This document shows positions 2,816-44,623 of a stretch of DNA of 64,000 nt, piece after piece. The notes below the pieces were generated by a model that saw only the letters and a program-made list of their open reading frames with translations, ran no database searches and had not been told where the DNA came from. Within the stretch, counting starts at the first letter, position 1; the number at the start of each line of letters is the position of its first letter. Origin of the DNA: Bacteroidota bacterium (GTDB lineage Bacteria > Bacteroidota > Bacteroidia > UKL13-3); the NCBI GenBank assembly GCA_027491355.1, contig JAIXWI010000041.1, positions 27,627 to 91,626 on the forward strand, written 5' to 3'. Both the position numbers and the translations under genes were made by a program.

Positions 2816-2816
2816 A

Positions 2817-4031
2817 ATGGAACGCATACAATTCAATACCATTGAAGAAGCAATTGACGACATTCGTCAGGGTAAAATGATCATAGTAGTTGATGATGAA
2901 GACAGAGAAAATGAAGGAGATTTTTTAACGGCAGCTAGAAATGTTACTCCTGAAATCATCAATTTCATGAGCAAAGAAGGTCGGGGTTTGATTTGTGCTC
3001 CTCTAATTGAGGAGAGATGTGAAGCACTCCAATTAAATTTAATGGTCAATGACAATACCACCTCACATGGTACTCCTTTTACTGTTTCAATAGATTTATT
3101 AGGTAAAGGTTGTACAACAGGTATTTCTGCTCATGACAGAGCCAAAACATTTCAAGCATTGGTTGATCCTAATACCAAACCAGAAGATTTTGGTAAACCA
3201 GGACATATTTTTCCATTAAAAGCAAGAAAAGAAGGTGTTCTTAGAAGAGCAGGTCACACAGAAGCAGCCATTGATTTTGCCAGACTTGCAGGTTTTGAAC
3301 CAGCTGGGTGCATAGTTGAAATTATGAATGAAGATGGTTCAATGGCAAGGGTTCCTGATTTGGTTAAAATTGCCTCTAAGTTTGATATGAAGCTGGTGAG
3401 CATTAAAGATTTAATTGCATACAGACTTGAGAAAGAATCTTTAGTTAAAAAAGTTATTTCGGTTGAAATGCCAACACAGTATGGCAATTTTATATTGACT
3501 GCTTACCAACAAAAAGATACGGGAGAGGAACACCTTGTTTTACAAAAAGGTAACTGGGAACAGGATGAACCTGTTTTGGTAAGAGTTCATTCTTCTTGTA
3601 TAACTGGTGATATTTTTCATTCTATGCGATGCGATTGCGGAGACCAATTACACCAGGCCATGAAAATGATAGAACAAGAAGGCAAGGGAGTGGTTTTGTA
3701 TATTAACCAAGAGGGCAGGGGCATTGGCTTAATCAACAAATTGAAAGCATATAAATTACAAGAGCAAGGCTTAGATACCGTTGAAGCAAATTTACAATTG
3801 GGTTTTAAAATGGACGAACGAGATTATGGTGTTGGCGCGCAAATTTTAAGAGATTTAGGTATTCAAAAAATGCGCTTAATGACCAACAATCCAACCAAAA
3901 GAGCTGGTTTAATTGGATATGGTTTGGAAATAGTAGAAAATGTTCCTATCACTACACACCCTAATTTGCACAATCAGAAATACCTTGCTACCAAAAAAGA
4001 TAAAATGGGGCACGAGTTGAACCCTTCTTAA
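2817..4031 (+). CDS. ribBA: Bifunctional 3,4-dihydroxy-2-butanone-4-phosphate synthase / GTP cyclohydrolase II
   Basis: [10 protein letters not shown] (DHBP synthase signature) in the N-terminal half. [20 protein letters not shown] (GCH-II zinc site) in the C-terminal half. Confidence 0.95.
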
Positions 4032-4039
4032 CAGTTGCA

Positions 4040-4540
4040 ATGATGATTGAGGCTTATCAAAAAATACTTCAACAAGCGTCCAACAAAAAGGTTGAAAATA
4101 AAAAGTTTTTAGATCGTCTAAAAAAACAAAAGCCCAATGGTATAGACCAATTGTTTCAGCAATTAAACGATGAGGTTTTTGAAGAGGTTGATTGCTTAAA
4201 ATGTGCCAATTGTTGTGCTACTACTGGCCCTATGTTGTTAAATAAAGACATTGACAGGATGGCTAAAACTCAACAGTTAAGACCTGCAACATTCACCGAA
4301 AAGTACTTGAGAATTGACGAAGATGGTGATTATGTTTTCAAAGCAATGCCCTGTCCTTTTTTAGGAGCTGATAAATATTGTGGCATATATGATGACCGTC
4401 CAAATGCATGCCGAGCGTATCCTCACTTACACCAAAGAAACATGCTTCAAAAAATGACAATCACTTACCATAACAGTTTAATTTGCCCTGCAGTTGCCAA
4501 AGCCATAGAAAAGCTGAAAACTCATTTTGATTTTGGTTGA
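4040..4540 (+). CDS. YkgJ-family cysteine-cluster protein (UPF0153)
   Basis: CLKCANCC plus CPFL...YCGIYDDRPNACRAYP cysteine pattern. Confidence 0.75.
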   Translation: MMIEAYQKILQQASNKKVENKKFLDRLKKQKPNGIDQLFQQLNDEVFEEVDCLKCANCCATTGPMLLNKDIDRMAKTQQLRPATFTEKYLRIDEDGDYVFKAMPCPFLGADKYCGIYDDRPNACRAYPHLHQRNMLQKMTITYHNSLICPAVAKAIEKLKTHFDFG

Positions 4541-5541
4541 ACTTTTTCAGTTTTAGGGTTTTGAGGGGTTGTTGTTGTTGGAGAGGTATTCGTAAGAGTT
4601 GTTTTTGAAGACTTTTTGACCAATCCATAACTTTGTATGAAAAAGGTTTTACTAGCAGCTGGATCTTTACCAAAGCGGTAACTCAAGCCAATAGCATGAC
4701 TTTGTTTAGTCACAGCAAATATTTGTGTAGCCGGCATATTGTAGTTGTAAAATAAATTCAAACGTTCTTTGGTTTTAACATAAACCAAGGCGCCAATTTG
4801 ATTGCTAGGTGAGAAATTTATTCCAACTCCTAAAGTTCTATCAAGTACGAGCATGCCTGAAAACTGAAGTGTAAGTGGAATGTTGGTAGATGTACTTGCT
4901 AGAGCTGAAGCCTCCACCGACAAATGGTTGTTAACTTCAGTATTGTACCAAGCTTGCATTGATAATACAGGTTGTTCAGTTGCTTGTATAAAACGGTATC
5001 TTTTTTGTGGAATTAAATTTGAACAACTCATTCCAATTAAAAAATGATCAGGCTTGTACACAGCTAAACCTGCATCAAAATTATTAACTGGAATACCGTT
5101 TAAATTACTTGAAAGTAGTAGGTCGTCATTGTCAATTACTTTTTGGTTGCCCAACGACAAATAACTCTGGCTGAGCACATGTTTCATTCCCATTGATAAA
5201 TTTACAGTGCGGCTCAAATTTAAATGATATGCAAAGGCATTACTTATTGCATAACTGCTTACTGGTCCTGCATGGTCACTATAAATGGCTGTATTCCAAC
5301 CAGTATTTTCACTGAAAACTTTATCGTAAGCTAAAAACAATGTTTGCGGAGCTCCTTGTATACCAACCCATCTTGCCTCGTATCCCAATTGCAGTTGATT
5401 GTTCATTAATCCTGCAATGGCTGGGTTGATACCTGCCGGATTAAATAAATACTGATTGGTTCCGGTATTTATTTGTGCATTTACCTGAAGTAAATACCCT
5501 ATGCTTAAAAAAGTTAAAATGTATTGTTTAATCTGATTCAT
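4522..5541 (-). CDS. PorP/SprF family type IX secretion membrane protein
   Basis: Signal peptide ending VNAQ followed by NQYLFNPAGINPAIAG, the family's N-terminal motif. Lies immediately downstream of a type B CTD cargo gene. Confidence 0.85.
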   Translation of the reverse strand: MNQIKQYILTFLSIGYLLQVNAQINTGTNQYLFNPAGINPAIAGLMNNQLQLGYEARWVGIQGAPQTLFLAYDKVFSENTGWNTAIYSDHAGPVSSYAISNAFAYHLNLSRTVNLSMGMKHVLSQSYLSLGNQKVIDNDDLLLSSNLNGIPVNNFDAGLAVYKPDHFLIGMSCSNLIPQKRYRFIQATEQPVLSMQAWYNTEVNNHLSVEASALASTSTNIPLTLQFSGMLVLDRTLGVGINFSPSNQIGALVYVKTKERLNLFYNYNMPATQIFAVTKQSHAIGLSYRFGKDPAASKTFFIQSYGLVKKSSKTTLTNTSPTTTTPQNPKTEKVQPKSK

Positions 5542-5552
5542 TTTTAGTTGAA

Positions 5553-8500
5553 TTACCTGATGAGATAAATGTAACCTGTATGCGATTTGTTATTGGTTTT
5601 GGTAATGAATACATAGTAGTAAGTGTCGTTTGGTAAATATCCATTGTTCCCACTCATTAAAGTACCAATACTTACCTTTCCATCCCAATTGTTGCTATAG
5701 TTGAAGGTATGATATACCAATTCTCCCCAACGGTTGTAAATGCTCAATTCATTTTCTGGAAAATCTTCTATTCCTTTAATCACAAAGTTATCGTTTTTAC
5801 CATCCCCATTTGGTGAAAACCCTTCAGGAATGTATAAACCACATTTGTAAGTTGGCGTACCCTCTAAAGCTATTTCAACAGAGTCTTTGCAGCCCAATGA
5901 GTCAATTACAACGGCTTTGAAATTACCTGCTTTTAAACTCCTCATCAATGAATCTTTGGTTGCTTTTCCATTCCATGTAAACTGATATGGTGCTCTTCCT
6001 CCATAAGGTGTTAATAATACAATGCCATCTGTATCAGACTCACAAACCAATTGTTTAACAACTTCTGCACTGATTGCCACCGGATCAGGCTCTATTAACA
6101 CTATACTATCTGTTTTTGTACAACCTCTTTGGTCTGTTACTGAAAAGGTGTAAATACCCTTTGGTAATTGAACCAATTGTTGACTTGAACCAAAACCAAT
6201 CCATCCAGAACTTTGATATGGAGTGCTTCCGCCATTTATAATGGCTTTGACACTACCATTTGCTTTACCAAAACAAGTAATAGGTGATTTGATGCTTAAT
6301 AGCAAATTGATTGCAGAGGCAGGATTGGTAATTATTACGCTATCTGAAACAGTACAACCTAGTTCATCAGTTGCAGTAACTGTATATGTTCCAGGCCCTA
6401 TATTGTTGTAAACAGAATCATTGACATTGCCCGGTAACCAGTTGAAAGTTGTATTTCCTTTACCTCCTGTTGCATTTACTTTCACACTGCCGTTATTGTC
6501 ATTGAAACAAATGATATCTTGTTTGCTCAGGTTTATTTTTAGTGGCGGGTTCAATTCAATCCAAACACTGTCAGTAAAAGTACAATTGTTGTTTACAACT
6601 GAGCAGTAGATCCAACCAGTAAAATCTTTCAATACTATTGGATTACCAGTCTCTCCGTTGCTCCAATTGTAGTTGTCAAAACCATCAGGTGCCGTTAAAA
6701 TTATAGTATCTGATTCACAAGAAAGCTTGGCGATGGTATCGAAACTGAAACGAAAATTATTGGGTTCGACCACAGTTCTTATTTGAAAAGAACAAGCGCC
6801 ATCACCACTGTAATTGTATGCTTTGGGAATAGCTGTAAACTGCTGGTTTATTTTTGGTATCAAAAGCAAACTATCACCTGTTTGATTACTTGGTAACCAC
6901 GTTACTCTATTTTTATTTTCAACTATTTCTAGTAAGCCATAAATTTGTGAATAACAAGGGTCGTTTGCAGCATTGTCATCATCTAGCATGGTATTCCAAC
7001 TAAAAGGTTCGGAACAACTACTATTCATCATGTACACGTAATCTTCACCTTGATTATTTGAAGGTGCATTCGAATTCCAATTTGTGTAGGTACCAGGGTC
7101 ACAATTCATCCATACAAATTCATTGTTTTGATTACGCATCATACCTAACCATACATTTTTCTTTACAATTCTTTGTATGAATTTTTGTTCAGCAGTGTCG
7201 TTAATAATTGCCAAATAGCCACCTACAGACAGTGCTTTTTTAGCAGCATCAGACCAATTGCTTCTATTTGTAGCTACATAATAATAATGTCCTAAATACC
7301 TACCTAAATAAGTGTAACCAGGTAAAGTACTGCCATTGATGTATTTGTTTCTGACAGGACCTCCATAAGGATTGCAATTGTCGTTCCAGTTGATATTAAA
7401 TAATGTTGGACTGTTCATGCAGACTTGATTAAAAGTATCTTGCATTAAGTTGGCTCTATTGATAGCAAAAAATGAGCTATCTGTTCCTGAACAACCACCT
7501 TTACTGATATGAACCCTATACCATGTTGCTTGATTAAAAAGTGTGTTTGGGGTTTGATCTCCATTGCTCCAACTGTATTTTTCAAATCCACTTGGAGCCT
7601 GAACTGCATAGCCTGAATTGCCACAATAATAAATTGTATCAGGTAAGAATTGAATAGATAATTTATTGCTTACACTCACTTTAACAGTATCATAGCAATA
7701 GTTTCCAGGTGTACCAACTCTTGCCCAATAATTTGTGTTGGTTAACAATCCAGGTATCTGAATATTTTCTGTTGTATCTCCTGTTGACCATAAAATTCCT
7801 GTAGCTTTTCTAAGTCTAATTTGAAAATTGTCAATACTCCAACTTTCATTGCAGGCAACTAATTCAGTGTCTATCAATGTCCCTATCCATTTAAATTGCA
7901 GGGCAGTATCTTGGTGCGCAAACTTTTTACTGATACGGTATAAAGTGGTATTAGCAGAAGAATTATTAAAGCATCTTCTTGGCAAACCTGTCTGTGAGGC
8001 ATCTTGTTTTGCAGGAAAACTTCCACTATTGAACATTGCATAACTTTGGGTACAACTTGTATTGTTTGAGAAAGTATTGGAAACCGAATTTTGCTGATCT
8101 AATTGCCATGTCAATTGATCCGGACCTGTTAAAGAGCAATCACCCTCCCATGTATCATGTATGTATAAATCAAAAGCAATTTCTACAGAATCGTGTGGAA
8201 TCAATCTGCCTAACTTAAATTGTAAAGTGTCGTTATGAAAGAAACCTAGAACCTTACTACCATTGTAAGTGAAGGTTGATTGTTTATTGAAGCCATTAAA
8301 TGGAGGTAATCCAGAAAAATTTTCGTTGTAATAATCTACAAAAAAAGCTGGAGATTTTGGTCCCCGAATTTGAAATGGGGTATTGATACAAATTGAAGTA
8401 TCTGGAGTAACAATGCTTGCATTGTTGATGAGGGCATATACACTGTCAAAACCAAAACAACCACCATTACCTGTTACTTTTACTTTATGCCAACCACTTG

Positions 8501-27434: not shown

Positions 27435-28115
27435 ATGGAAATAGCACGTAAAATTTTGGTTGTTGATGATGAATCAGATATTCTAGATTTTATTACATAT
27501 AACCTTAAAAAGGAGGGTTATTTGGTTGCCACAGCATTTAATGGTGCTCAAGCAATTGAAGTTTCTAAAACATTCAAGCCAGACCTAATTTTATTGGACG
27601 TGATGATGCCCGTGATGGACGGAATTGAAACATGCGCTCATATTAAGAGTCTGCCTGAATTTGCTAAAACATTCATTGTCTTTTTAACGGCAAGGTCTGA
27701 GGAGTATTCTGAAATAGCGGGTTTTCAAGCAGGCGCCGATGACTATATTGCCAAACCAATTAAGCCAAAAGTGCTAATAACCAGATTGAATGCCATATTA
27801 AGAAGAAAAGACAAAGAAGAAACTGCATCTACCAAATTAGTTGTTGGAGACATAACAATTGATCGTGATTCATTTTTAGTTTACAGAGGGTCAGATAAAA
27901 TTCAACTTGCAAGAAAAGAGTTTGAATTGTTGTTTCTTTTGGCTTCTAAACCTGGTAAAGTTTTCACACGCGATTTTATTTTAGAGAAAGTTTGGGGAGA
28001 TGAAGTATTGGTTGTAGATAGAACCATTGATGTTCACATTCGTAAAATCAGAGAAAAATTAGGTGACGATTACATTGGCACTGTGAAAGGTGTAGGCTAT
28101 AAATTTGAGATATGA
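27435..28115 (+). CDS. OmpR/PhoB-family response regulator
   Basis: ILVVDDE...LDVMMP receiver domain. C-terminal winged helix ...VDVHIRKIREKL...GVGYKF. Confidence 0.9.
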   Translation: MEIARKILVVDDESDILDFITYNLKKEGYLVATAFNGAQAIEVSKTFKPDLILLDVMMPVMDGIETCAHIKSLPEFAKTFIVFLTARSEEYSEIAGFQAGADDYIAKPIKPKVLITRLNAILRRKDKEETASTKLVVGDITIDRDSFLVYRGSDKIQLARKEFELLFLLASKPGKVFTRDFILEKVWGDEVLVVDRTIDVHIRKIREKLGDDYIGTVKGVGYKFEI

Positions 28116-29161
28116 CAAGAAACCCAAAACCGTTAAACATAGCCACGCTTATTTCTGCTATATTAGCAATATGTGTAGGCAGTGTGAGTTTTGTGTTAAC
28201 TGAAAATGTATGGATCAATACGGCTATTGTTATTACCTTAACATTTGGGCTTTCATTTTTCCTCTATTTTTATTCGCTAGAATATTTCATTTATCGAAAA
28301 ATAAAATTAATCTACAAAACCATTCACAGTTTAAAAACTCAACGTTACGATGCTGTTTTGAAAAACTTTGATTGGGATAAAGATCCAATTGTTGAAATGA
28401 ATAAAGAAGTAATTAATTGGGCAAGAGACAACCGAATGGAAATTGATCAGTTGAAAAGGCTTGCTGATTTTAGGAAGGAGTTCTTAGGTAATGTTTCTCA
28501 TGAGTTAAAAACACCAATATTCAATATACAGGGTTATTTGCACACGCTCTTAGATGGTGCAATGTCTGATCCTGAAGTAAACGTTCGTTTTTTACAAAGA
28601 GCAGCAAAAAGTGCCGCACGTTTGAGTGATTTAGTTGCTGATTTATTAGCAATTAGTCAGTTAGAGAGTGGAGAGTTGGTAATGGAAATTGAACGATTTG
28701 ATATCAATTCATTGGTAAAAGATGTTTATGAACAATTAGAGGAAAAAGCAAAACGCAAACACATTGTGTTGTTGATAAAGGATGGTTGTAACAAGCCCTT
28801 TTACGTAGAAGCAGACAAATACAGAATCAGGCAGGTTTTGGTAAATTTAGTAACCAATGCCATAAAATATGGCGTAGAAAGTGGTACCATTACTGCAGCT
28901 TACTATGACATGGATGAAAACCTGTTGATTGAAATTGCTGATAACGGTGAAGGAATAGCACAAGAACATTTACCGCGCATTTTTGAACGTTTTTACAGGG
29001 TAGAGAAAAGCCGTGCAAGAGACAATGAAAACGGTGGTACAGGTCTTGGTTTAGCAATTGTAAAGCACATCATTGAAGCACATAACCAAGCTGTAAATGT
29101 AAGAAGCACGGAAGGAGCTGGAACCACATTTGGGTTTACATTGACTAAGTCTGACGTCTAG
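28112..29161 (+). CDS. PhoR-like sensor histidine kinase (two TM helices with a very short external loop)
   Basis: H-box SHELKTPI, N-box NAIKY, DNGEGI, GGTGLGLAIVKHI. ATGA overlap with the regulator gene. Confidence 0.9.
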   Translation: MTRNPKPLNIATLISAILAICVGSVSFVLTENVWINTAIVITLTFGLSFFLYFYSLEYFIYRKIKLIYKTIHSLKTQRYDAVLKNFDWDKDPIVEMNKEVINWARDNRMEIDQLKRLADFRKEFLGNVSHELKTPIFNIQGYLHTLLDGAMSDPEVNVRFLQRAAKSAARLSDLVADLLAISQLESGELVMEIERFDINSLVKDVYEQLEEKAKRKHIVLLIKDGCNKPFYVEADKYRIRQVLVNLVTNAIKYGVESGTITAAYYDMDENLLIEIADNGEGIAQEHLPRIFERFYRVEKSRARDNENGGTGLGLAIVKHIIEAHNQAVNVRSTEGAGTTFGFTLTKSDV

Positions 29162-29265
29162 ATCTCAATACCTATTTACGTATTTTATTTTGCAAGCGCT
29201 TTTATATTTTAAATGAAGATTCACATAAGACGACATTAAATCTCATCCCTAAGAAAATAAAGTTT

Positions 29266-29458
29266 GGATGTTCCGACCATTGTCAATCGGCGCACAAAAT
29301 CACCAGTGCTTGTTGTGGGAAGGCCTTTAGCAAGCGAATCCCGACAGCAATTAACAAGAAACAACAATTGGAAACCAATATTGACTTGCTGCGTTATGCG
29401 CGTGGAGAACAAGGACGCAGATAGATTTTAAGCCGATTGGGTGAGGTCTTGATTTTTT
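29266..29458 (+). ncRNA. Candidate structured small RNA, copy 1 (unassigned family)
   Basis: Nested helices: GACC 29275-78 / GGTC 29445-48; CAATCGGC 29284-91 / GCCGATTG 29432-39; GCTTGTTG 29308-15 / TAGCAAGC 29328-35; CAGCAA 29345-50 / TTGCTG 29386-91; GCGTT 29391-95 / GACGC 29414-18. Ends in TTGATTTTTT. Confidence 0.55.
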
Positions 29459-29586
29459 GCTTCCTTTTTTATCAAGAAAAAAGGTACGAAAACATGACTT
29501 TTAACTGATTCCCGTTCAAAAGCAGCAAACTCTTTTTCTGAATTTTATCAAGAAAAAAGGGACAATCAAATTCAAAACTCTCTAAC

Positions 29587-29609
29587 GACCATTCACGCAA
29601 GACCATTCA
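29587..29609 (+). promoter_or_regulatory. Paired direct-repeat boxes GACCATTCA-N5-GACCATTCA upstream of RNA copy 2
   Basis: Boxes at 29587-95 and 29601-09 (14 bp start to start). The second box starts 37 nt before the GGA at 29638. Confidence 0.4.
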
Positions 29610-29637
29610 AAATCTCATCCAAAAACCAATATCAATC

Positions 29638-29826
29638 GGATGTTCCGACCATTGTCAATCGGCGCACAAAATCACCAGTACTTGTTGTGGGTAAGCCTAC
29701 AGCAAGCGAATGCCAAAGCAAGTAACAGAAATACGTATTCAAAGCAATATGGATTGCTGCGTCAGACGCGAGGAGAACAAGGACGCAGATAGATTTTAAG
29801 CCGATTGGGTGAGGTCTTGATTTTTT
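29638..29826 (+). ncRNA. Candidate structured small RNA, copy 2
   Basis: Same helices as copy 1, with a different 32-nt segment (29722-29753) inside the AGCAA/TTGCT stem. Ends in TTGATTTTTT. Confidence 0.55.
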
Positions 29827-29957
29827 GCTTCCTTTTTTATCAAGTAAAAAGGTACGAAAAATTGACTTTTAACCAATGACCGTTCAAAAGCAGCAAACTC
29901 TTTTTTTTAAATTATTATCAAAAAAAAAGAAGCAACAAATAGAAAAAACTATCAATC

Positions 29958-30009
29958 GACCATTCACGCACAAATAACTCGCACACGACCATTCACGCAA
30001 GACTATTCA
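29958..30009 (+). promoter_or_regulatory. Three box copies (GACCATTCA, GACCATTCA, GACTATTCA) upstream of RNA copy 3
   Basis: Boxes at 29958-66, 29987-95 and 30001-09. The extra box accounts for the 400-bp period. The last box starts 37 nt before the GGA at 30038. Confidence 0.4.
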
Positions 30010-30037
30010 AAATCTCATCAAAAAGAAAATACCAATT

Positions 30038-30227
30038 GGATGTTCCGACCATTGTCAATCGGCGCACAAAATCACCAGTGCTTGTTGTGGGAAGGCCTGC
30101 AGCAAGCGAATGCCAAAGCAACAAACCATAGTTCCATATTAAATAGAAATTTAGATTGCTGCGTCAGACGCGTGGAGAACAAGGACGCAGATAGATTTTA
30201 AGCCGATTGGCGAAGGTCTTGATTTTT
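30038..30227 (+). ncRNA. Candidate structured small RNA, copy 3
   Basis: Same helices, with a different 34-nt segment (30122-30155). Internal-loop change GGTGA to GCGAA. Ends in TTGATTTTT. Confidence 0.55.
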
Positions 30228-30358
30228 GGGGTACCTTTTTTATCAAGAAAAAAGGTACGGAAATATGACTTTTAACCAATTCCCGATCAAAAGCAGCAAA
30301 CTCTTTTTCTGAATTTTATCAAGAAAAAAGAAGAAACAAATAGAAAAAACTCTCAAAC

Positions 30359-30381
30359 GACCATTCACGCAAGACCATTCA
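30359..30381 (+). promoter_or_regulatory. Same paired GACCATTCA boxes upstream of the S46 peptidase gene
   Basis: Boxes at 30359-67 and 30373-81. The second box starts 37 nt before the GGA at 30410, where array homology ends. The peptidase ATG is at 30512. Confidence 0.4.
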
Positions 30382-30511
30382 AAATCTCATCCCAAAACCA
30401 ATTTCGTTTGGAAGCTATTTATGTTTTGATATCCCACCTAACATATAAGATAATATACACAATCTATGCATTTAGTTGAATTTTGACCTTGTTCAGTTTT
30501 ATATTCGTTTC

Positions 30512-32677
30512 ATGAATAAGTTATATACCTTTTTGGCTACAATCCTGGTGCTGGTTACTTTCACTGCTGCAAAACTAATAAACCCAGATGAGGGCATGTT
30601 CCCTTTGTCTGAAATCAAACAATTGGAATTAAAAAAAATTGGTCTTAAAATGGATCCAATGGCATTATACAATCCACAAGGAATTAGTCAAATAGATGCC
30701 ATTGTTAGGGTAGGAGGATGTACAGGTTCTTTTGTTTCAGACGATGGTTTAATTGTTACTAATCACCATTGTGCATTCAGTTTTGTACATGCCATCAGCG
30801 ATACACAGAACAAGTATGTTGACAAAGGATTTTTAGCTAAAACTAGAACAGAAGAAGTACCAGCAAAAGGACTGGTTTGCAAAATTACAGCCAGTTATGA
30901 AGATGTCAGTGCAAAGGTTTTAATGGGTACCCAAGTTACCAATGACCCAATGATCCGCTTAAAAATTATTTCTGACAACATTAAAAATTTAACTGAATCC
31001 GAAAACAAATTGCATCCCAATTTGCAATGTGAAATTTCTGAAATGTTTACTGGAAGAACCTACGTGTTGTTTCGTTACCAATTGTTAAAAGACGTGAGAT
31101 TGGTTTACGTTCCAGGCAGGAGCATTGGAGAGTATGGTGGCGAAAAAGACAATTGGGTTTGGCCAAGACACAGTGGAGATTTTGCATTTTTGAGAGCCTA
31201 TGTAGGTAAAGATGGAACCCCTGCAAACTATAGTCTTGAAAACGTTCCTTACAAACCTGTAAAACATTTAAATATCAATATCAAAGGCATCAAAGAAAAT
31301 GATTTTGTATTTATTTTGGGTTATCCAGGAAGGACATTTAGGAACCAACCTGCAGCATTTTACAAGTATCACGAACAATACCTTTTGAAATATGTCAGTG
31401 AATTGTACAATTGGCAAATCAATTTCATGGAACAATTGGGTACAGGTAATCAATTCCTTGAACTGAAGTATGCTGCACGCATTAAAAGTTTAGCCAATAC
31501 CGCCAAAAACTATGAAGGCAAATTGCAAGGTTTTAGAAGGGTAGGGCTTACCAAAAACAAAGAAATAGACGAGCAGTTAATGCAAGAATTCATCAATAAA
31601 GACGATACGCGTAAAAAGAGATACGGCAACCTGATTCCTACTATCAATACCTTGTATGCAGACATCATCCGATATGCTCCAAGGAATTTGTTTTATGATT
31701 ATTTGTATGGCATGTCTCCAAGTTTTCAGTTTTTAGCTGCAATAGATAATTACCAAACAGCTTTTGCAAAATTGAAAACCAAAGAAGAGAAAGCGGCCTT
31801 TTTAGCCAAACAAGTTCCTAGATTAAAACAATTGTACCAGAAGCTATTTGCGCAAATGGACCCTGTTTTGGAACAACCCTTGATTGAAAAACTATTGGAA
31901 GAAGCAAGTCAATACAATGTCGATAACCGTGTAGAAACGGTCGTGAAATTCTATAAAAAATTTGGTGACAAAGTTGCCAGAACCAAGGCAATTGCAGAAT
32001 TGTTCAACAACGCCATTCAATTAAATGAAGGCAAAATGAACCAATTATTAGCCGATTCAAATGAGAAAATCATGCACATCAAATTGCCATTACAAGATTG
32101 GGTACATTTGATGAACCAAGAAGTTAATAAGTACGACGACGAAGACAAGCAAAGAGAGGCAGCACTAAATTCCTTACTGGCTAAATATGTAGATGCAAAA
32201 AGCGAATTCAAACAAGCATCTTTTATTCCAGATGCAAATGGTACACTTAGGTTTACTTATGGCAATGTAAAAGGCTATGCTCCTAACGATGCTGTTTGGA
32301 ACAAACCATTTACAACACTCAGAGGTGTAATAGAAAAAGAAGATGGGAAAGATTTTGAATTGATGCAAATAATCAAAGAATTGTATTTAGCCAAAGACTA
32401 TGGTCAATATTTACATCCTGATTTAGGCGATTTGCCTATTGATTTTTTATACAATTTAGATACTACCGGTGGCAATAGTGGGAGTCCTGTAATGGATGAA
32501 AATGGGGATTTGGTTGGTGTCAATTTTGACAGGGCCTATACTGCAACCATCAATGACTATGCATGGAATGAGTCTTATTCGAGAAGTGTAGCTGTAGACA
32601 TCCGTTATGTTTGTTGGGTACTTGATAAAGTTGCAGGTGCTAAACATTTGTTAAAAGAAATGCAGGTACCTCAGTAA
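30512..32677 (+). CDS. S46 family dipeptidyl-peptidase (DPP7/DPP11 type)
   Basis: GGCTGSFVSDDGLIVTNHHCA (catalytic His region) and DTTGGNSGSPV (catalytic Ser). ATG at 30512 gives the signal peptide MNKLYTFLATILVLV. Confidence 0.9.
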   Translation: MNKLYTFLATILVLVTFTAAKLINPDEGMFPLSEIKQLELKKIGLKMDPMALYNPQGISQIDAIVRVGGCTGSFVSDDGLIVTNHHCAFSFVHAISDTQNKYVDKGFLAKTRTEEVPAKGLVCKITASYEDVSAKVLMGTQVTNDPMIRLKIISDNIKNLTESENKLHPNLQCEISEMFTGRTYVLFRYQLLKDVRLVYVPGRSIGEYGGEKDNWVWPRHSGDFAFLRAYVGKDGTPANYSLENVPYKPVKHLNINIKGIKENDFVFILGYPGRTFRNQPAAFYKYHEQYLLKYVSELYNWQINFMEQLGTGNQFLELKYAARIKSLANTAKNYEGKLQGFRRVGLTKNKEIDEQLMQEFINKDDTRKKRYGNLIPTINTLYADIIRYAPRNLFYDYLYGMSPSFQFLAAIDNYQTAFAKLKTKEEKAAFLAKQVPRLKQLYQKLFAQMDPVLEQPLIEKLLEEASQYNVDNRVETVVKFYKKFGDKVARTKAIAELFNNAIQLNEGKMNQLLADSNEKIMHIKLPLQDWVHLMNQEVNKYDDEDKQREAALNSLLAKYVDAKSEFKQASFIPDANGTLRFTYGNVKGYAPNDAVWNKPFTTLRGVIEKEDGKDFELMQIIKELYLAKDYGQYLHPDLGDLPIDFLYNLDTTGGNSGSPVMDENGDLVGVNFDRAYTATINDYAWNESYSRSVAVDIRYVCWVLDKVAGAKHLLKEMQVPQ

Positions 32678-38068: not shown

Positions 38069-38407
38069 ATGGAAGATAATAATACACAACCAATGAGGAA
38101 TTTTGTAGATATACAGAACGAGGCTATTAAAGTTATTCAAACAGTTTATGACCCTGAAATTCCAGTTAATATATACGAATTGGGTTTGATTTATGAAGTG
38201 AATGTTTCTCATGATTTGAATGTAGAAATTATCATGTCTTTGACCTCACCATTTTGTCCTGCTGCCCAAAGTATGCCTGCTGAAATTAAAGAGAAAGTGG
38301 GAGCCATTGAAGGGGTAAAAGAAGTAACAGTAACAGTAACTTTTGAACCAGCTTGGACCCAAGATTTAATGAGTGAATCTGCAAAATTACAGTTGGGTTT
38401 TTTATAA
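38069..38407 (+). CDS. DUF59 (SufT/PaaD-like) Fe-S assembly protein
   Basis: 112 aa, VYDPEIPVNIYELGLIY and LTSPFCPAA motifs. Confidence 0.85.
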   Translation: MEDNNTQPMRNFVDIQNEAIKVIQTVYDPEIPVNIYELGLIYEVNVSHDLNVEIIMSLTSPFCPAAQSMPAEIKEKVGAIEGVKEVTVTVTFEPAWTQDLMSESAKLQLGFL

Positions 38408-38473
38408 AAGAATGCTTTTAAAGTTTTAAAGAGTGTTTATGAAATAGTTCTTAAATGCATTCAATTAGAAAGC

Positions 38474-38680
38474 TTATTCCCAATCAGTATTATCCAATTC
38501 AAATAAATCATACAAAGAAGTTTCAAGCACATAGGCTATTTTAAGAGCCAATAAAATGCTTGGATTGAACTTGCCAGATTCAATGGCATAAATTGATTGT
38601 CTGCTAATTCCTACCTTCTGAGCCAATTCCTCTTGTGTGAAACCTTTATTTGTTCTAATTGATTTTAAATTGCTTCTCAT
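38474..38680 (-). CDS. XRE-family helix-turn-helix transcriptional regulator
   Basis: 68 aa, LKSIRTNKGFTQEELAQKVGISRQSIYAIESGKFNPS. Confidence 0.85.
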   Translation of the reverse strand: MRSNLKSIRTNKGFTQEELAQKVGISRQSIYAIESGKFNPSILLALKIAYVLETSLYDLFELDNTDWE

Positions 38681-39120
38681 TGTTTCATTTTTTTATTGGT
38701 TTTATACAATTCAAATTGAAAGAAAAGGTTGAAAAGGATCAAAAAGCTAAAAAGATTCATCAACATTAAATTTAAAAACGACAATCCACCAAAAAACCAA
38801 GTACCAACAATCAATCCAGCTGTTTGAAAAATTGCTGATTTGATTAAAGCTTGATACCTTAAAAAATCGATGTATTCATCTTCTTTTTTGCGCTGAATAA
38901 ATCCTAGTATGTAAAGAGCAATTAGAATAAAAGTCAGCGCTAAATCTCCTTGATAGTTACTCCTTTCAAGCAGTACTGCAATTCCAGTATTTGAACTTTT
39001 AATTTGTAAAAACGGCAGAATCGTATCGTTTAAATAAGCAAATCCCAGGCCCATACCTAGTGCAAGCAATAACATAGCATAAGGAATAAATTTTCGGTCA
39101 ATTAAAAAGCTATTTTTCAT
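38677..39120 (-). CDS. Small four-TM membrane protein co-transcribed with the XRE regulator (DUF2178-like arrangement)
   Basis: 147 aa and hydrophobic. 4-nt overlap with the regulator gene. Confidence 0.6.
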   Translation of the reverse strand: MKNSFLIDRKFIPYAMLLLALGMGLGFAYLNDTILPFLQIKSSNTGIAVLLERSNYQGDLALTFILIALYILGFIQRKKEDEYIDFLRYQALIKSAIFQTAGLIVGTWFFGGLSFLNLMLMNLFSFLILFNLFFQFELYKTNKKMKQ

Positions 39121-39147
39121 TTTACAGAATGATTAATTCCATCAAAA

Positions 39148-39211
39148 ATGTAAACAAAACTTTACATTTGCAAGTCACAATCTAAAAAATACTATAAAAG
39201 TAGTATTTTTT
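39148..39211. promoter_or_regulatory. Two inverted repeats in the divergent intergenic region (candidate operators), plus a TAnnTTTG box
   Basis: ATGTAAA (39148-54) / TTTACAT (39161-67). AAAAAATACTA (39184-94) / TAGTATTTTTT (39201-11). TACATTTG at 39163-70 matches TAnnTTTG on the + strand. Confidence 0.3.
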
Positions 39212-39260
39212 GCTAAGTCAAAAACAGTAGGTTTGAGTAGAACAATCAAACAAAATAATT

Positions 39261-39575
39261 ATGAGTTTTACAGGAAATGAAGAGCATAGCATAACACTAG
39301 CAGATGCTTCAGTATTAACCGAACGCTTTAGAGACAACATGCCCTGGGATGATACCATTGCGGAGTTTTTTGGTAAAGCTGCCCTGTTAGAAATTTTAGA
39401 ACAAGAGGACTGTGTAGGTATTCGGTTTTACTATGGTTTTGACGACCAAATGAGGCCAAGTTTAGTTGCTGTTGGAGCCAAACCTAATCAGGACGATTTG
39501 GTCAATGGCTTTATTGCTGAAACAGGAAGAAGGTGCCCTGTTTATTGTAGCACACCAAATGATTTAAACTCATAG
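39261..39575 (+). CDS. Hypothetical small soluble protein
   Basis: 104 aa with no motif I recognise. First gene of a same-strand run ending in a kinase/regulator pair. Confidence 0.5.
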   Translation: MSFTGNEEHSITLADASVLTERFRDNMPWDDTIAEFFGKAALLEILEQEDCVGIRFYYGFDDQMRPSLVAVGAKPNQDDLVNGFIAETGRRCPVYCSTPNDLNS

Positions 39576-39576
39576 G

Positions 39577-40215
39577 TTGAATTCATTATTGCCAAATACA
39601 ATTGTATTTATTGAAGTACTTGGGCTATTTGTATTGGCTTGGACTTGGAAATCTATTGTACCAAATCACAAGTATTTGGCAGTTTACTTAATAACAGCTG
39701 TTGTTTTTGAATGTATGTATATGATCGCAGATCCGTACGGTTCAAAATACAATTTGATTTTAGGAAACATTTATTCATTGATAGAAGTTTGGGTGTTGTC
39801 TATCCTCTATACCCAATGGAATAAAGAGAAAACAGGTATTTTTTATCTGTTTTCTCTTATTTATTTTTTAGTATGGGCCATTTATTACCTGAACAATGGT
39901 CTTTCTTTTATGAATGGAATCATTCATGGTATGGCCAGTTTAATCATAATGGTTATGAGTATCATTGCATATATCCGTTATTTAGCTTCAGATTACAAGA
40001 GTTTCAAATTGCCCATTACTTTGGGCTTTATTTTTTATTCCTGTACCAATGTCGGAATCATGACCTTCTCGGCTTATCTGTCATCATTGAATTCAGAAAA
40101 AGTAGTATTTTTTTATTATGTCATTAATCTTTTTTCAAATTTAGGGTTGTATATTTTCATGACAATTGGACTGATTAAATGCAAGAAACAATCATCGGAA
40201 TTATCGTCATACTGA
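39577..40215 (+). CDS. Multi-pass membrane protein (about 6 TM)
   Basis: 212 aa. TTG start one nt after the preceding TAG. The 3' end overlaps the kinase gene by 37 nt in a different frame. Confidence 0.55.
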   Translation: MNSLLPNTIVFIEVLGLFVLAWTWKSIVPNHKYLAVYLITAVVFECMYMIADPYGSKYNLILGNIYSLIEVWVLSILYTQWNKEKTGIFYLFSLIYFLVWAIYYLNNGLSFMNGIIHGMASLIIMVMSIIAYIRYLASDYKSFKLPITLGFIFYSCTNVGIMTFSAYLSSLNSEKVVFFYYVINLFSNLGLYIFMTIGLIKCKKQSSELSSY

Positions 40216-40925
40216 CCTCTACAATTTTAACTTTGTTTCTGGTTGCTGTGGTATACATTAATAAATATTTTAGAGAAAAAGTTGTTTCACAACAACAATT
40301 GTTTTCGGCTATAGTTGAAGCACAAGAAATTGAAAGGCAAGCTATTTCTAACAATATACACGACGAATTAGGGGGTATTCTAACTTCAACAAAAATTACG
40401 ATTTCTGTTTTGTTAGAGAACCCAGATTTGAGTTCAGAAGTCAAATCGAAAATGACACAATTGTACAACGATTTAGGTACAGCCAGTTCAATTGCTAGAA
40501 ATGCATCCAATTCTTTGTCGCCAACTTCAATCAATAGGTATGGATTAAAAGGAGCTCTCTCAGATTTATGCGACCGTTTAACACAAAATGGAATTGCAGT
40601 GAATTTTAGCTTTCAATTATCGGTTGATTTACCTGAAAACATTCAGATAAACTTGTATAGAATTATAAATGAAGCAATCAATAATTCTCTTAAGTATGCT
40701 CATGCAACCGAATTGTATGTCATTGTTCAAGATAAAGTTCAAAACAGGGTACAAGTTAAAATTGGTGACAATGGAATTGGTTTCAATTGGAATGAAATGC
40801 TAAAAAAATCAAAGTCAAAAGGGCTGCAAAATATGTACAACAGATGTAAACTCATCAATGCTGATTTGCATGTAGAATCGACTCCTGAAACGGGCACACA
40901 TATTCAAATTCTTTTTCATTTGTAA
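40179..40925 (+). CDS. NarL-class (HisKA_3) sensor histidine kinase
   Basis: One N-terminal TM helix, ERQAISNNIHDELGGIL H-box, NNSLKYA N-box, DNGIGF. Confidence 0.85.
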   Translation: MQETIIGIIVILTSTILTLFLVAVVYINKYFREKVVSQQQLFSAIVEAQEIERQAISNNIHDELGGILTSTKITISVLLENPDLSSEVKSKMTQLYNDLGTASSIARNASNSLSPTSINRYGLKGALSDLCDRLTQNGIAVNFSFQLSVDLPENIQINLYRIINEAINNSLKYAHATELYVIVQDKVQNRVQVKIGDNGIGFNWNEMLKKSKSKGLQNMYNRCKLINADLHVESTPETGTHIQILFHL

Positions 40926-40928
40926 GCC

Positions 40929-41585
40929 ATGGTATTGAAATACAATATTGCAATTGTTGATGACCACCCAATGATTTTAAATGGATTGATTGCTTATTTG
41001 AAATCAGTGAGTTATGTGGAAACAATCAATGGTTTTTTAAATATTAATGACTTCAAAGCATGGATTGTTCAAAATCCCATTGATATAGCTATTTTAGATT
41101 TGCGCATACATGACAAAGATGGTGGATTTGAATTGGCAGCTCATTTAAAAAAAGAATATCCTCAAACCAAAATTTTAATTTATACAGCACATTTAAACAG
41201 TTCTTACATAATGGATTGTATGAGTATTGGTGTAAATGCATACATCTGTAAAGACAGCCCGGTTCAAGAAATCAAAAATGCAATAGCCGCTTTTAATAAA
41301 AATGAAATATACTATTCTGATGATGTTGCTAAGCTCATCAAACAACATAAAAAATTGTATTTTTCTACATTAACCAATGATGAATTGTTATCTAAAAGGG
41401 AAATTGAAATTTTACGTATGATATGCAAAGGATTAAATGCTGAGCAAATAGGTGCTGCTTTGTTTATTTCTAAAAATACAGCTAGAAAGCACCGTCAAAA
41501 TATTATGAGTAAAACGGATTGCCACAATGTTCAGGAATTATGGCAATATGCTTCTGCCAATCGTTTGTTATCAGAAAAATATTAA
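40929..41585 (+). CDS. LuxR/NarL-family response regulator
   Basis: IAIVDDHPMI...ILDLRI receiver domain. C-terminal LSKREIEILRMICKGLNAEQIGAALFISKNTARKHRQNIMSK HTH. Confidence 0.9.
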   Translation: MVLKYNIAIVDDHPMILNGLIAYLKSVSYVETINGFLNINDFKAWIVQNPIDIAILDLRIHDKDGGFELAAHLKKEYPQTKILIYTAHLNSSYIMDCMSIGVNAYICKDSPVQEIKNAIAAFNKNEIYYSDDVAKLIKQHKKLYFSTLTNDELLSKREIEILRMICKGLNAEQIGAALFISKNTARKHRQNIMSKTDCHNVQELWQYASANRLLSEKY

Positions 41586-41641
41586 TCAAAGCTTCTTTTT
41601 ATTATTTGATTCCTATTAAATTAGGTGCAATTTTTATAGGT

Positions 41642-42073
41642 ATGCGAATAAATTGGAGAAATATTACAGCAATTGTGATAGGAATGCTTGCTGGATCGAT
41701 TGCAAATATGGGTGTTATAGAAATTGGATCAATGCTGATTCCTGCACCAAATGGTGTTGATATTGAAAATTTTGAGTCTATCAAAGCACATATTCATCTG
41801 TACCAACCCTCTCAATTTTTGTTTCCATTCATAGCCCATTGTATTGGAACATTTATTACTGTTTGGTTATTTATGTTCATTGCCAGTACCCGTTATCCAA
41901 TCAGGTATGTAAACATGTTTGGAACGCTCTTTTTTTTATGTGGGGTTTACATGGTATACATTTTACCAGCACCCATTTGGTTCAATTTGCTAGACTTAAC
42001 CATTGCCTATTTTCCCATGGCCTATTTGGGTTATCAATTTTCAATTAGAAAAGAAAAAGTTCCCATTCAATAA
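41642..42073 (+). CDS. Small membrane protein
   Basis: ATG at 41642 avoids overlap with the regulator gene. About 4 TM helices. Confidence 0.5.
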   Translation: MRINWRNITAIVIGMLAGSIANMGVIEIGSMLIPAPNGVDIENFESIKAHIHLYQPSQFLFPFIAHCIGTFITVWLFMFIASTRYPIRYVNMFGTLFFLCGVYMVYILPAPIWFNLLDLTIAYFPMAYLGYQFSIRKEKVPIQ

Positions 42074-42086
42074 AATCAGTAACAGG

Positions 42087-44378
42087 TTAATTTCCTATCA
42101 ATTCAAATGAAGTTTCAAGTACCTCATTTACGTTTTTGCCAATAAATAATTTGAACTGACCCGGTTCTAGCACTCGTTCCATATTTGCATTGTAAAAATA
42201 CAATTCATCCATTGTTATTTTAAAGCATACTTGTTTACTTGTTCCTGCTTTTAAAAATACTTTGCTGAATTTTTTCAACTCTTTTAAAGGTCTTGTGCTG
42301 CTACCAACTAAATCTTGAACATACAATTGAACTATTTCATAGCCATCTATTTTTCCAGTATTTGTAATCGTTACAGATGCTGCTATCGTATCGTTTTTTT
42401 TGAATTGATTTTGATTGAGTTGTAGGTTAGAATAGTTGAATTGGGTATAGCTTAAACCAAAACCAAAAGGGTAGAGTGGTGTATTAGGAATGTCTAAATA
42501 TTTTGAAGTGTACTTTTGATTGTTATCAAAAGGTCTGCCGGTATTTTTAGCCGCATAGTATATTGGAACTTGGCCAATACTTCTTGGAAAACTCATGGTC
42601 AATTTACCTGAAGGATTTTCATCACCAAACAATACTTTACAAATAGCTGGACCCGATTGTGTTCCCAAAAACCAAGTTTCAAGGATAGCAGAAACATGTT
42701 CGTTTTCCCATGAAAGTGATAGTGGTCTTCCGTTACTCAAGAGCAACACAATTGGTTTACCTAATGCATGAATTGCTTTCAATAAATTCATTTGATTTGG
42801 TGGAATACCAATTGCTGATCTGCTTGCAGCTTCACCACTCATCCCTTCAGACTCGCCCAATGCCATAACAATTATGTTTGCTTTTGATGCAACTGTAATG
42901 GCTTCATTTATGAGGGTTTCTGCACTTCGTTTATCAATAAATTCTTGGATGTGCATTTTTTGAATTAACAAAGTATCATCTGTAACATTTGCTCCTAAGG
43001 CATAACTGATTGATGCCTTACCAACTGTTTTTGCTGCAACAGCATCCCATAAACTTTTAGCTTGTGTATAATCCCCTGCAGCACTCCAATTACCAATTAA
43101 ATCTCTTTTATTCTTTACAAAAGGGCCTATGAATGCAATGCTTTCTTCGTTTTTAAGCGGCAACAGGTTGTTGTCGTTTTTTAGCAACACCATGGAGGCA
43201 GTGGCTGTTTGTTCAGCTGCCTGTAAGTGTTCGGTTGTCATGATATTGTTTTTTGCACGCTTTTCGTCGCAATACAAATAAGGATTTTCAAACAAACCCA
43301 ATTGCCATTTTGCATCTAAAATTCTATAAACTGCTGCGTCAATATCAGCTATTTTTACTTCATTTTTCTCAACAGCTGCTTTTAAGTAAGTGATGTATAC
43401 GGCTCCTTGCATATCCATATCGATGCCTGCATTCAAGGCTGCTACACCTGCTTCGTATTCATTGGCTACATTGCCATGGTTGACCATTTCATTAATTGAA
43501 GTGTAGTCTGTAACTACAAATCCTTTGAAACCCCATTGTTTGCGCAATAAATCGGTCATCAACCATTTGTTAGCTGTAGCAGGTACACCGTTTATTTCAT
43601 TGAATGAACTCATTACACTGGCGGCACCTGCGTCAATGGCTGCTTTGTATGGTGGTAAATATACATTGAACATGCTTTGCATGCTCATGTCAACAGTATT
43701 GTAATCTCTTCCAGCTACTGGCGCACCGTACAATGCAAAATGTTTGACACAGCTCAAAATACTTTCTTTGCTTTTTAAATCAGTTCCTTGGTATCCTTTT
43801 ACTTTTGCCCTGGCAATTGCAGAACCTAAAACAGGATCTTCTCCAGACCCTTCTGCTACTCTTCCCCAGCGTGGGTCTCTTGTAATATCAACCATGGGCG
43901 AATAAGTCCAATGTAGGCCATCTGCACTGGCCTCGGTTGCAGCAATTTTTGCAGACTGTTCAGATAAAAGGGTATCCCAAGCACAAGACTCTCCTAGTGG
44001 AATTGGAAAAATAGTTTTGTGGCCATGAATGACATCGTAACCAAACAAGAGCGGAATTTTTAGCCTTGATTGCATGGCCATGTCTTGTAATTTTCGGGTG
44101 TAAACTGGCGTGTATGCGTTGAAAATATTTCCACATCGTCCACTCATGATATCTTGTTTGTAGTTGTCACGCATGATTGGTCCTGTTACAGACATATCAC
44201 TGGTGTAAAGGGTTAGCTGTCCTAACTTTTCATCCAAGGTCATTTTGGAAATGAGTGTTTGAATGAAGGCCTCTTTGTTGGCTGGATTAGTATTTTTTTT
44301 GTGAATGTTTTGTGCAAGACAAAATTGGCTCAATCCAATGAGTAATAAGCAAAAGCTGTTTTTTCTGAAATTTCTCAT
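42087..44378 (-). CDS. bglX: Glycoside hydrolase family 3 beta-glucosidase
   Basis: Signal peptide, KHFALYG, GFKGFVVTDY (nucleophile Asp region), C-terminal fibronectin-like domain, 763 aa. Confidence 0.9.
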   Translation of the reverse strand: MRNFRKNSFCLLLIGLSQFCLAQNIHKKNTNPANKEAFIQTLISKMTLDEKLGQLTLYTSDMSVTGPIMRDNYKQDIMSGRCGNIFNAYTPVYTRKLQDMAMQSRLKIPLLFGYDVIHGHKTIFPIPLGESCAWDTLLSEQSAKIAATEASADGLHWTYSPMVDITRDPRWGRVAEGSGEDPVLGSAIARAKVKGYQGTDLKSKESILSCVKHFALYGAPVAGRDYNTVDMSMQSMFNVYLPPYKAAIDAGAASVMSSFNEINGVPATANKWLMTDLLRKQWGFKGFVVTDYTSINEMVNHGNVANEYEAGVAALNAGIDMDMQGAVYITYLKAAVEKNEVKIADIDAAVYRILDAKWQLGLFENPYLYCDEKRAKNNIMTTEHLQAAEQTATASMVLLKNDNNLLPLKNEESIAFIGPFVKNKRDLIGNWSAAGDYTQAKSLWDAVAAKTVGKASISYALGANVTDDTLLIQKMHIQEFIDKRSAETLINEAITVASKANIIVMALGESEGMSGEAASRSAIGIPPNQMNLLKAIHALGKPIVLLLSNGRPLSLSWENEHVSAILETWFLGTQSGPAICKVLFGDENPSGKLTMSFPRSIGQVPIYYAAKNTGRPFDNNQKYTSKYLDIPNTPLYPFGFGLSYTQFNYSNLQLNQNQFKKNDTIAASVTITNTGKIDGYEIVQLYVQDLVGSSTRPLKELKKFSKVFLKAGTSKQVCFKITMDELYFYNANMERVLEPGQFKLFIGKNVNEVLETSFELIGN

Positions 44379-44623
44379 GTGTTATTTTACAATAGCTGTT
44401 GATTCTAATACAATTTGATTGCTAATTTTGAAGTCAATGTTTTGTATAAACAAATTTCAAATCAATCTGATGTGTTAGTTTTCCATTTTGCAAAATATAA
44501 AAAAAAACTATACGCAATGGGTCATTTTATGAGAAAAATCATCAGGTAAACCAATAAAAATTGTGTTAACAAGTTATCATTAAGCCAAGTAAAGAATTAG
44601 TTTTGTTTCTTTATTTCAAACTG

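Follow-up and report, generated by a model that had tools for sequence, protein, structure and literature searches.

The DNA considered here is a 64,000-nucleotide stretch (the window) of contig JAIXWI010000041.1, from a Bacteroidota bacterium of the lineage UKL13-3 (assembly GCA_027491355.1). Between a two-component kinase gene and a Peptidase_S46 gene, both on the + strand, lies a gap (29162-30475, + strand) that holds three direct units of a ~340 bp repeat, with a start-to-start spacing of 368-403 bp. The obtained results suggest that this region is a tandem triplication of a structured small-RNA (sRNA) gene on the + strand, in which each unit would comprise an upstream module (a putative promoter), the RNA, a U-run and a terminator-like hairpin. 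The copies belong to a real multicopy family of RNAs that had not been described before, that is supported by covariation and whose apical loop evolves fast. The array and its two flanking genes are made up as follows.

28112-29161, + strand: two-component kinase gene (HisKA/HATPase), preceded by an OmpR-type regulator gene
29222-29272, + strand: upstream, promoter-like module of unit 1, with the box AAATCTCATCC at 29238-29248, a 17-nt A/T-rich spacer and GGATG
29275-29459, + strand: RNA copy 1, from GACC of P1 (29275-29278) to GGTC (29445-29448), then a U-run (nhmmer 2e-68)
29345-29391, + strand: apical stem CAGCAA/TTGCTG of copy 1, around loop 1 (29351-29385, 35 nt)
29463-29484, + strand: terminator-like hairpin of unit 1, CCTTTTTT-ATCAAG-AAAAAAGG
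29485-29609, + strand: inter-unit spacer 1, with the motif CGACCATTCAC at 29586-29596 and a degenerate second terminator-like copy at 29541-29560
29610-29644, + strand: upstream module of unit 2
29647-29827, + strand: RNA copy 2, with loop 2 at 29722-29753 (32 nt)
29831-29852, + strand: terminator-like hairpin of unit 2
29853-30009, + strand: inter-unit spacer 2, with two CGACCATTCAC motifs (29957-29967 and 29986-29996)
30010-30044, + strand: upstream module of unit 3
30047-30229, + strand: RNA copy 3, with loop 3 at 30122-30155 (34 nt)
30234-30255, + strand: terminator-like hairpin of unit 3
30346-30415, + strand: fourth, solo upstream module (CGACCATTCAC, CAAGACCATTCAAAATCTCATCC, GGAAGC), directly 5' of the Peptidase_S46 gene and without an RNA scaffold
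30476-32677, + strand: Peptidase_S46 gene, the 3' neighbour of the array

Further copies were obtained by scanning for exact patterns, which yielded one contig of a metagenome-assembled genome (MAG) among the GTDB species genomes (L003) and three freshwater contigs among the JGI metagenomes (L004-L006). An nhmmer search placed 11 full copies at five loci, namely three in the window, two in each of L003 and L004, three in L006 and one in L005, together with a dozen fragments. RNAalifold, applied to the 11 copies, predicted a rod-shaped RNA on the + strand. The base of the rod is formed by P1 (GACC/GGUC) and then P2 (CAAnCGGC/GCCGnUUG), in which the two ends of the RNA pair with each other, and its upper part by P3 (GUnCUUGUU/AACAAGnAC), a small hairpin and the apical stem that closes the variable loop. 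The rod contains a small GCG hairpin, an alternative pairing with GCGAAU lengthens the apical hairpin, and a separate CCUUUUUU/AAAAAAGG hairpin lies 3' of the rod.

Counted over the same 11 copies from which the consensus structure had been derived, 94.9% of the cells were paired and 10 pairs were changed on both sides. None of 500 shuffles was as good on any of four of the five measures, and control models slid by 1-3 columns reached only 40-54% paired cells, while a hand-refined model on a second alignment gave 91% with 9 compensatory pairs. An extra A-U helix, placed like P3 between the P1/P2 base and the apical hairpin, covaried by eye (AAAAUC/GAUUUU against AAAAUGC/GCAUUUU). The AGCAA/TTGCT stem that an earlier interpretation made from the letters alone (the sequence-only reading) had drawn around a variable segment proved real, covarying as AGCAA/UUGCU, AGAAA/UUUUU and AAAAA/UUUUU; the enclosed segment is the apical loop. 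In the subfamily formed by the L005 copy and one L006 copy, this stem was replaced by a 9-bp helix, AUCAAAUUG/CAAUUUGAU, around a 41-nt variable segment. Read on the + strand, the fold contains 36 G-U cells, compared with 2 for the - strand; this excess identifies the + strand as the folding strand and points to RNA and not to a signal in duplex DNA. The covariation and the strand-specific G-U pairs support the identification of the scaffold as a genuine structured RNA of ~185-200 nt.

The positions of the three variable segments given in the sequence-only reading (29351-29385, 29722-29753 and 30122-30155) were exact, each lying between AGCAA and TTGCT, and the flanking scaffold was indeed near-constant, with 91-93% identity between copies. 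Scaffold cores of 34 and 37 nt flanking the loop were the same in all three copies, for a chance expectation of 0 matches. Loop identity between the window copies was 43-50% (43-46% for loop 1 against loops 2 and 3), as opposed to 91-93% for the scaffold (Fisher p = 2e-8 to 2e-9); the terminator module was 85-97% identical between units and the alignable inter-unit spacer ~83-90%. The segment remained hypervariable in the larger alignment of 11 copies, where it was still the least conserved stretch, with a majority-base fraction of 0.59-0.66 compared with 0.72-0.95 elsewhere. The earlier statement that the loops cannot be aligned stood in so far as they are strongly divergent and failed in so far as two pairs retain similarity: the alignments of loop 1 with loop 2 and of loop 2 with loop 3 surpassed those of shuffled sequences (p <= 0.003 over the full loop length, 0.013-0.017 in the core), and only loops 1 and 3 aligned at chance level.

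Other properties of the loop varied little. Loop lengths in the main subfamily were 35, 32, 34, 32, 34, 35, 34, 34 and 34 nt, with a family range of 31-35 nt, and the base composition was 41-56% A (26% in the scaffold) and 0-17% C. The expectation that the segment is partly single-stranded agrees with the predictions, in which the apical loop was mostly unpaired (mean unpaired probability 0.49-0.79, against 0.32-0.45 for the rest of the RNA). The first 3-5 nt and the last 5 nt of the loops were semi-conserved, and (A)GUA...GAA stood at the loop ends beside the stem in five of the eight distinct type-A loops; by sequence signature, these AGUA/GAA ends may form a loop-E or bulged-G motif.

The history of the loops is decoupled from that of the scaffolds. 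The two L004 copies had scaffolds that were 97% identical and loops that were 63% identical, while two L006 copies (L6a and L6c) had identical loops and scaffolds with 10 differences over 149 positions, which concentrate in the internal-loop region. Two types of internal region and two apical types were seen in three combinations; the family is therefore mosaic. Metagenome contigs carried a loop resembling loop 1 with a clustered 4-nt change, loops resembling loop 2 with 3 changes, and one loop that starts as loop 3 and ends as loop 2, from which it follows that the loops change by point mutation and micro-recombination and not by insertion of foreign spacers. The earlier description of the segment as swappable was thus not borne out, as both the residual similarity and the variants seen in populations speak for point changes with small mosaics and against an exchange of cassettes. 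Since weak residual similarity is kept, the loops descend from a common ancestor and are not swapped-in sequences.

We tentatively read the apical loop as a sequence-specific recognition element of a multicopy sRNA family, and give this reading a probability of roughly 45%. The rod presents a 31-35 nt, A-rich, largely unpaired loop on the AGCAA/UUGCU stem. Purifying selection and exchange between copies keep the scaffold uniform. Point changes and small mosaics alter the loop at several times the rate of every other part of the unit, the inter-RNA spacer among them. The exposed single strand would pair with a nucleic-acid partner, and sibling copies would address different partners. The sequence data show the repeat, its fold and strand, the modular unit, the multicopy family and the length, composition and rate of the loop; we infer the limits of transcription, the action in trans and the base-pairing of the loop. 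The argument for this reading is an evolutionary one, that the differences between loops are maintained, because flanks and the apparently untranscribed spacer stay similar while the loop is near chance identity. Loop length, composition and openness are held while identity is near chance, which is expected if the sequence matters for recognition; such a pattern is harder to obtain if composition alone matters.

Sibling or multicopy sRNA families include the tandem LhrC1-5 of Listeria, Qrr1-5 of Vibrio, the csRNAs of Streptococcus (CiaRH) and the FopS paralogues of Bacteroides thetaiotaomicron. By analogy, the present family would work most like these, with the conservation pattern inverted. 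The likeness lies in several near-identical RNA genes, some of them in tandem, which in the present family would be transcribed independently, given the putative promoter and terminator modules at each copy; the array also adjoins a two-component system as the Streptococcus csRNAs do. The array RNA differs in being longer and rod-shaped, and its copy number is apparently much higher.

Several observations weigh against a loop that reads sequence. In known families of sibling sRNAs, the base-pairing seed is the constant part and the remainder varies; the present family keeps its scaffold and changes fastest in the exposed loop. The layout described in the sequence-only reading is right, and its idea of targeting is plausible. 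The three segments had been proposed to address different targets in the manner of sRNA seeds, and no target was found for any loop within the window: no enriched complementarity was detected to its 49 start regions, where duplex energies were no better than those of shuffled loops (p ~0.5-0.6). The sole long complement was a perfect one of 14 nt, between loop 1 (29356-29369, loop nt 6-19) and the region of the OmpR-type response-regulator gene that encodes the DNA-binding domain (27925-27938); its p value was 0.023 before correction for the three loops and not significant after it. No RNA-seq runs were found for the window, and one lake metatranscriptome held a single 151-nt contig (depth 4) spanning terminator, spacer, upstream module and 5' scaffold, which could be DNA or read-through and is uninformative. 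Copy-to-copy exchange, as in the pattern of L6a and L6c, complicates any argument from rates. Finally, the loops are of low complexity and A-rich, which also fits a role without sequence specificity.

Such a role could be played by the same RNA family if the loop were a flexible, A-rich platform or spacer of fixed length, serving as a site for a protein that prefers A-rich single strands or as a tether. Its sequence would drift freely, without sequence-specific reading, and the function (a protein sponge or a ribonucleoprotein scaffold) would lie in the conserved rod. The narrow loop length, the strong A bias, the lack of a conserved core sequence and the failure to find targets all agree with this account; the residual similarity among loops indicates gradual drift from one ancestor, and the semi-conserved, possibly loop-E-like ends may suggest a structural or protein-binding role of the loop base. 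Against it, the exchange that keeps flanks and spacer 83-97% identical should also homogenise a loop whose sequence is indifferent, whereas the loop is at or near chance identity. We consider the platform somewhat unlikely, behind sequence-specific recognition.

The layout also recalls guide RNAs. The RNAs could be guides for a protein effector in defence, transposition or transcription control, with a programmable loop core of ~25 nt, although this seems distinctly unlikely. In an equally doubtful elaboration, the family would be the guide repertoire of a new RNA-guided system of freshwater Bacteroidota, with dozens of scaffold RNAs per genome and the protein encoded elsewhere; each RNA, transcribed independently, would offer a ~25-nt guide in its apical loop above the loop-E-like motif, and mutation instead of spacer acquisition would diversify the guides. 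A fixed scaffold with a variable segment of set length (31-35 nt) fits such guides, as does a scaffold that is high-copy and loops that are low-copy in metagenomes. At three of the five loci, moreover, the copies lie among toxin-antitoxin or defence-type genes (Fic, HepT, PIN, RhuM), and non-CRISPR guide RNAs are already known in Bacteroidota (dCas12f-sigmaE, PMC13472631). However, no cas, TnpB/IscB, IS110, Argonaute or reverse-transcriptase gene was found within ~30 kb on each side of the array or beside the other copies. The suggested guide-like matches to mobile DNA did not appear either: the three loops had no exact 22-mer in IMG/VR, and no loop gave a blastn match in the phage and plasmid collections. 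The loops evolve by point mutation and not by acquisition, and the place of known guides is an RNA end or a paired internal loop rather than the loop of a hairpin.

The individual guide systems can be compared more closely. IS110 bridge RNA, TnpB/IscB omega RNA and dCas12f guide RNA (gRNA) share with the array a conserved folded scaffold and a short variable segment, and gRNA genes occur in tandem in some Bacteroidota. The dCas12f-sigmaE gRNAs are 85-105 nt long, carry a 14-16 nt guide at the 3' end and are encoded beside dcas12f (PMC13472631). All three classes are found beside their protein gene, with the guide at an end or in a paired internal loop, unlike the hairpin loop seen here, and no cognate recombinase or nuclease gene (IS110, TnpB/IscB, dCas12f) was present in the window or beside the copies in L003-L006. 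The guide-RNA layout is thus resembled, but each testable feature of membership fails, namely partner gene, end-located guide and acquisition signature. Like a CRISPR array, the region has direct repeats that separate unique segments of narrow length range (~32-35 nt); a CRISPR array was rejected since the period is 368-403 bp and the repeat ~340 bp, upstream and terminator modules included, instead of ~23-55 bp, the loops share residual homology and change by point mutation, there are no cas genes among 30 open reading frames (ORFs) scanned in the window, and no protospacer matches were obtained. Box C/D and H/ACA guides of archaea and eukaryotes likewise have dozens of paralogues on one scaffold with a differing short guide, but none of their motifs occurs here, and we know of no such guide RNAs in bacteria.

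Arrays of template RNAs were considered as well. UG27 reverse-transcriptase (RT) non-coding RNA (ncRNA) arrays consist of ~150-nt units in prophages with an AUCN7UANAG motif and also a UUYA motif; the units are diverse over their whole length and adjoin the RT and two accessory genes (bioRxiv 10.64898/2026.09.22.753630). UG27, retron msr-msd and defence-associated RT (DRT) ncRNAs resemble the present array in their structured, arrayed units, the variable central hairpin, unit gain and loss between close relatives and the phylum Bacteroidota, whereas UG27 is phage-borne and here the scaffold is highly conserved. A template RNA of the UG27, retron or DRT kind was rejected, as no RT domain was found in the scanned neighbours and AUCN7UANAG was absent on both strands. 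A diversity-generating retroelement was also rejected: the changes that separate close loops are not confined to adenine (G>C, C>T and T>G occur among them), and there is no RT. Integron attC sites were rejected because there are no RYYYAAC/GTTRRRY boxes at the helix ends (by eye), no integrase and only scattered truncation junctions. A small protein or a ribosomally synthesised and post-translationally modified peptide (RiPP) precursor is contradicted by a stop before the loop in copy 1, by loop lengths of 35, 32 and 34 nt that shift the frame and by relatives without an ATG; tiny ORFs starting at the loop end differ in length and sequence, and no proteins are called for them. No Rfam 15 family matched the array, a permissive scan of 29100-30500 giving only junk (E >= 0.99, far below gathering scores).

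The abundance of the scaffold was estimated from k-mer depth in three lake metagenomes. Single-copy flanks had depths of 76-83, 32-38 and ~5, and the scaffold bins in the corresponding lakes 2,600-6,800, 875-2,900 and 120-450, which is 30-150 times the flanks; the most conserved 18 nt reached ~13,000 in lake metagenome X1. Spacer bins were at 4-12 times and loop bins at 1-8 times the flank depth. Because the depth ratio is similar across samples, these values suggest tens of copies per genome-equivalent, to which co-occurring relatives may contribute. Joints that skip or repeat one unit revealed copy-number polymorphism, and short-read contigs ended at the first copy. The contigs L001 and L002 end 134 nt past the kinase gene, and many Fic-gene contigs are just 1.3-1.5 kb long. 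As short-read assemblies break at repeats, the family is likely under-represented in MAGs and databases.

High copy number, copy-number polymorphism and rearranged joints in populations would fit a MITE- or REP-like DNA repeat, selfish or structural in nature, that spreads and amplifies in intergenic regions, with a fold used for mobilisation or incidental and an unconstrained loop. Truncated copies are common, short-read contigs break there, and the copies lie close to accessory-gene islands. This explanation nevertheless appears improbable. The unit ends have no terminal inverted repeat of at least 8 nt and no transposase lies nearby, the one-strand G-U excess and the compensatory changes point to selection on RNA, and each unit brings an upstream and a terminator module of its own, both of which serve protein genes as well. 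The truncation breakpoints are scattered (model positions 53, 104, 126, 146, 158 and 186), so that no defined recombination site emerges; the loop is therefore not a dedicated recombination site, and its candidacy as an attachment site was ruled out by the same breakpoints. In L003, short hairpin repeats (CCCTGATGAAGC...GCTTATCAGG) are inserted within RNA copies at 340-370, 1880-1940 and 3550-3640, and in one unit they take the place of the entire scaffold, from the upstream module to the terminator module; they have the look of another repeat family, of REP/MITE type.

The modules around the RNA were found both with and without it. Each copy is preceded by AAAT(C/T)TCATCC, 17 nt and GGA(A/T)G just 5' of P1; the box, with the same 17-nt spacing, stands 5' of every one of the 11 full copies, of truncated copies and, in relatives, of protein genes, often with one to four CGACnATTCAC motifs further 5' of the copies. 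On the 3' side of every copy come GGUC(U/G)UGAUUUUUUG and then the hairpin module. The upstream module is a putative promoter, and it fits neither the sigma-70 nor the Bacteroidetes -33/-7 consensus well (partly by eye). In L004, an MNT/HepT operon has the upstream module and 53 nt of scaffold on its 5' side and a terminator module on its 3' side. A RhuM-family gene of L003 lies 3' of the first 104 positions of a copy; for a DUF4160/DUF2442-like pair, the 3' end is made up of the final 70 positions and the terminator; and the Fic genes in L006 and L027 end with the U-run and hairpin module. The presence of the modules around protein genes is as expected of expression signals, and the direction of transcription would then be that of the fold.

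Toxin-antitoxin-type cassettes (MNT/HepT, the DUF4160/DUF2442-like pair and RhuM, at L004 447-1284 and 2542-3160 and L003 280-1420) are framed by pieces of the RNA genes, 5' ones, 3' ones or both, and apparently reuse the upstream and terminator modules of these genes. When the array was compared with the phage and plasmid collections by blastn, only the terminator-like module was matched (Persicobacter, Aureibacter). This module, GTCTTGATTTTTTG-N5-CTTTTTTATCAAGAAAAAAG (window 29445-29484), is multicopy in these Cytophagales, at 4-7 places per replicon and with no homologous scaffold upstream; examples are L007 1501-1537 (Aureibacter tunicatorum pAT6, between cas7d and cas5d) and L008 1499-1537 (Persicobacter sp. 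JZB09). Either a terminator that is widespread in Bacteroidota or a small mobile hairpin could account for it. Units 1 and 3 of the array have a second, degenerate terminator module ~75 nt after the first (29541-29560 and 30312-30331), which implies an older duplication inside the unit.

The three units could alternatively be cis-acting leaders, as tandem attenuators or riboswitch-like elements, that control the S46 peptidase gene. The units and this gene are on the same strand, the solo upstream module is directly 5' of the gene, and the terminator-like element can form two mutually exclusive hairpins (CUUGAU/AUCAAG or CCUUUUUU/AAAAAAGG). Nevertheless, the downstream gene differs at each locus, being a small ORF in L005 and a toxin-antitoxin island or the contig end in L003, L004 and L006, which led us to reject the riboswitch or cis-leader class. 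Relatives whose S46 protein is 68-71% identical do not have the element, those at 91% keep only a 3' remnant, and the high copy number is not riboswitch-like. Control of the peptidase gene in cis is accordingly the least probable of the explanations weighed here, at the level of a very long shot.

The remnant was seen in the syntenic contigs L009-L011 (S46 91% identical), where nothing is left of the array but the 3' third of a single element together with the terminator module and repeated motifs of the spacer; no element was found in the relatives with S46 at 68-71% identity. The family is therefore narrow and turns over quickly. Lookups of eight array ORFs by exact sequence, and of a 719-aa pseudo-protein concatenated from the six frames, returned no further copies. 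With the neighbouring Fic protein as an anchor, the protein family proved widespread in other contexts without the element, and only the 100%-identical contig L027 has the terminator module. In viral contigs, three of four scaffold patterns had no match, and the fourth hit two high-GC coding regions, which are chance matches.

The window has a G+C content of 32-38%. The window proteins include type IX secretion system components (a plug domain, PorP/SprF and a CHU_C/SprB-repeat protein), GatB, the Suf system, S46 and other housekeeping proteins, and a Pfam search of 30 window ORFs found housekeeping genes only, with no cas, reverse-transcriptase, transposase or integrase gene. The sole Rfam 15 match at gathering score in the whole window is a tRNA gene:

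57022-57106, - strand: tRNA gene

The top S46 homologues come from uncultured Bacteroidota MAGs, and the window DNA is present in freshwater metagenomes. A low-GC block (0.32) at 38400-44600 encodes a HisKA_3 kinase, a LuxR-type regulator, a GH3 glycosidase and unannotated ORFs. It sits between the SufE and Pirin genes, where the close relative L009 has just a small FeS_assembly_P gene, and is probably an inserted island.

Bacteroidota hardly use Shine-Dalgarno sequences, and their small-RNA biology is poorly charted; to our knowledge, they also lack Hfq and ProQ. The family described here would join a small number of structured RNAs with covariation support that come from uncultured freshwater members of the phylum. 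Its tandem arrays explain short-read assembly breaks in these genomes, and the modules that it shares with, and that apparently also drive, toxin-antitoxin cassettes point to a lineage-specific expression cassette. A fixed scaffold with a fast, exposed loop is what one would expect to see in a recognition module that is under pressure to diversify. If it is true that the loop reads nucleic acids, the family would provide a natural set of loop variants on one scaffold, from which the rules of specificity would be directly testable.

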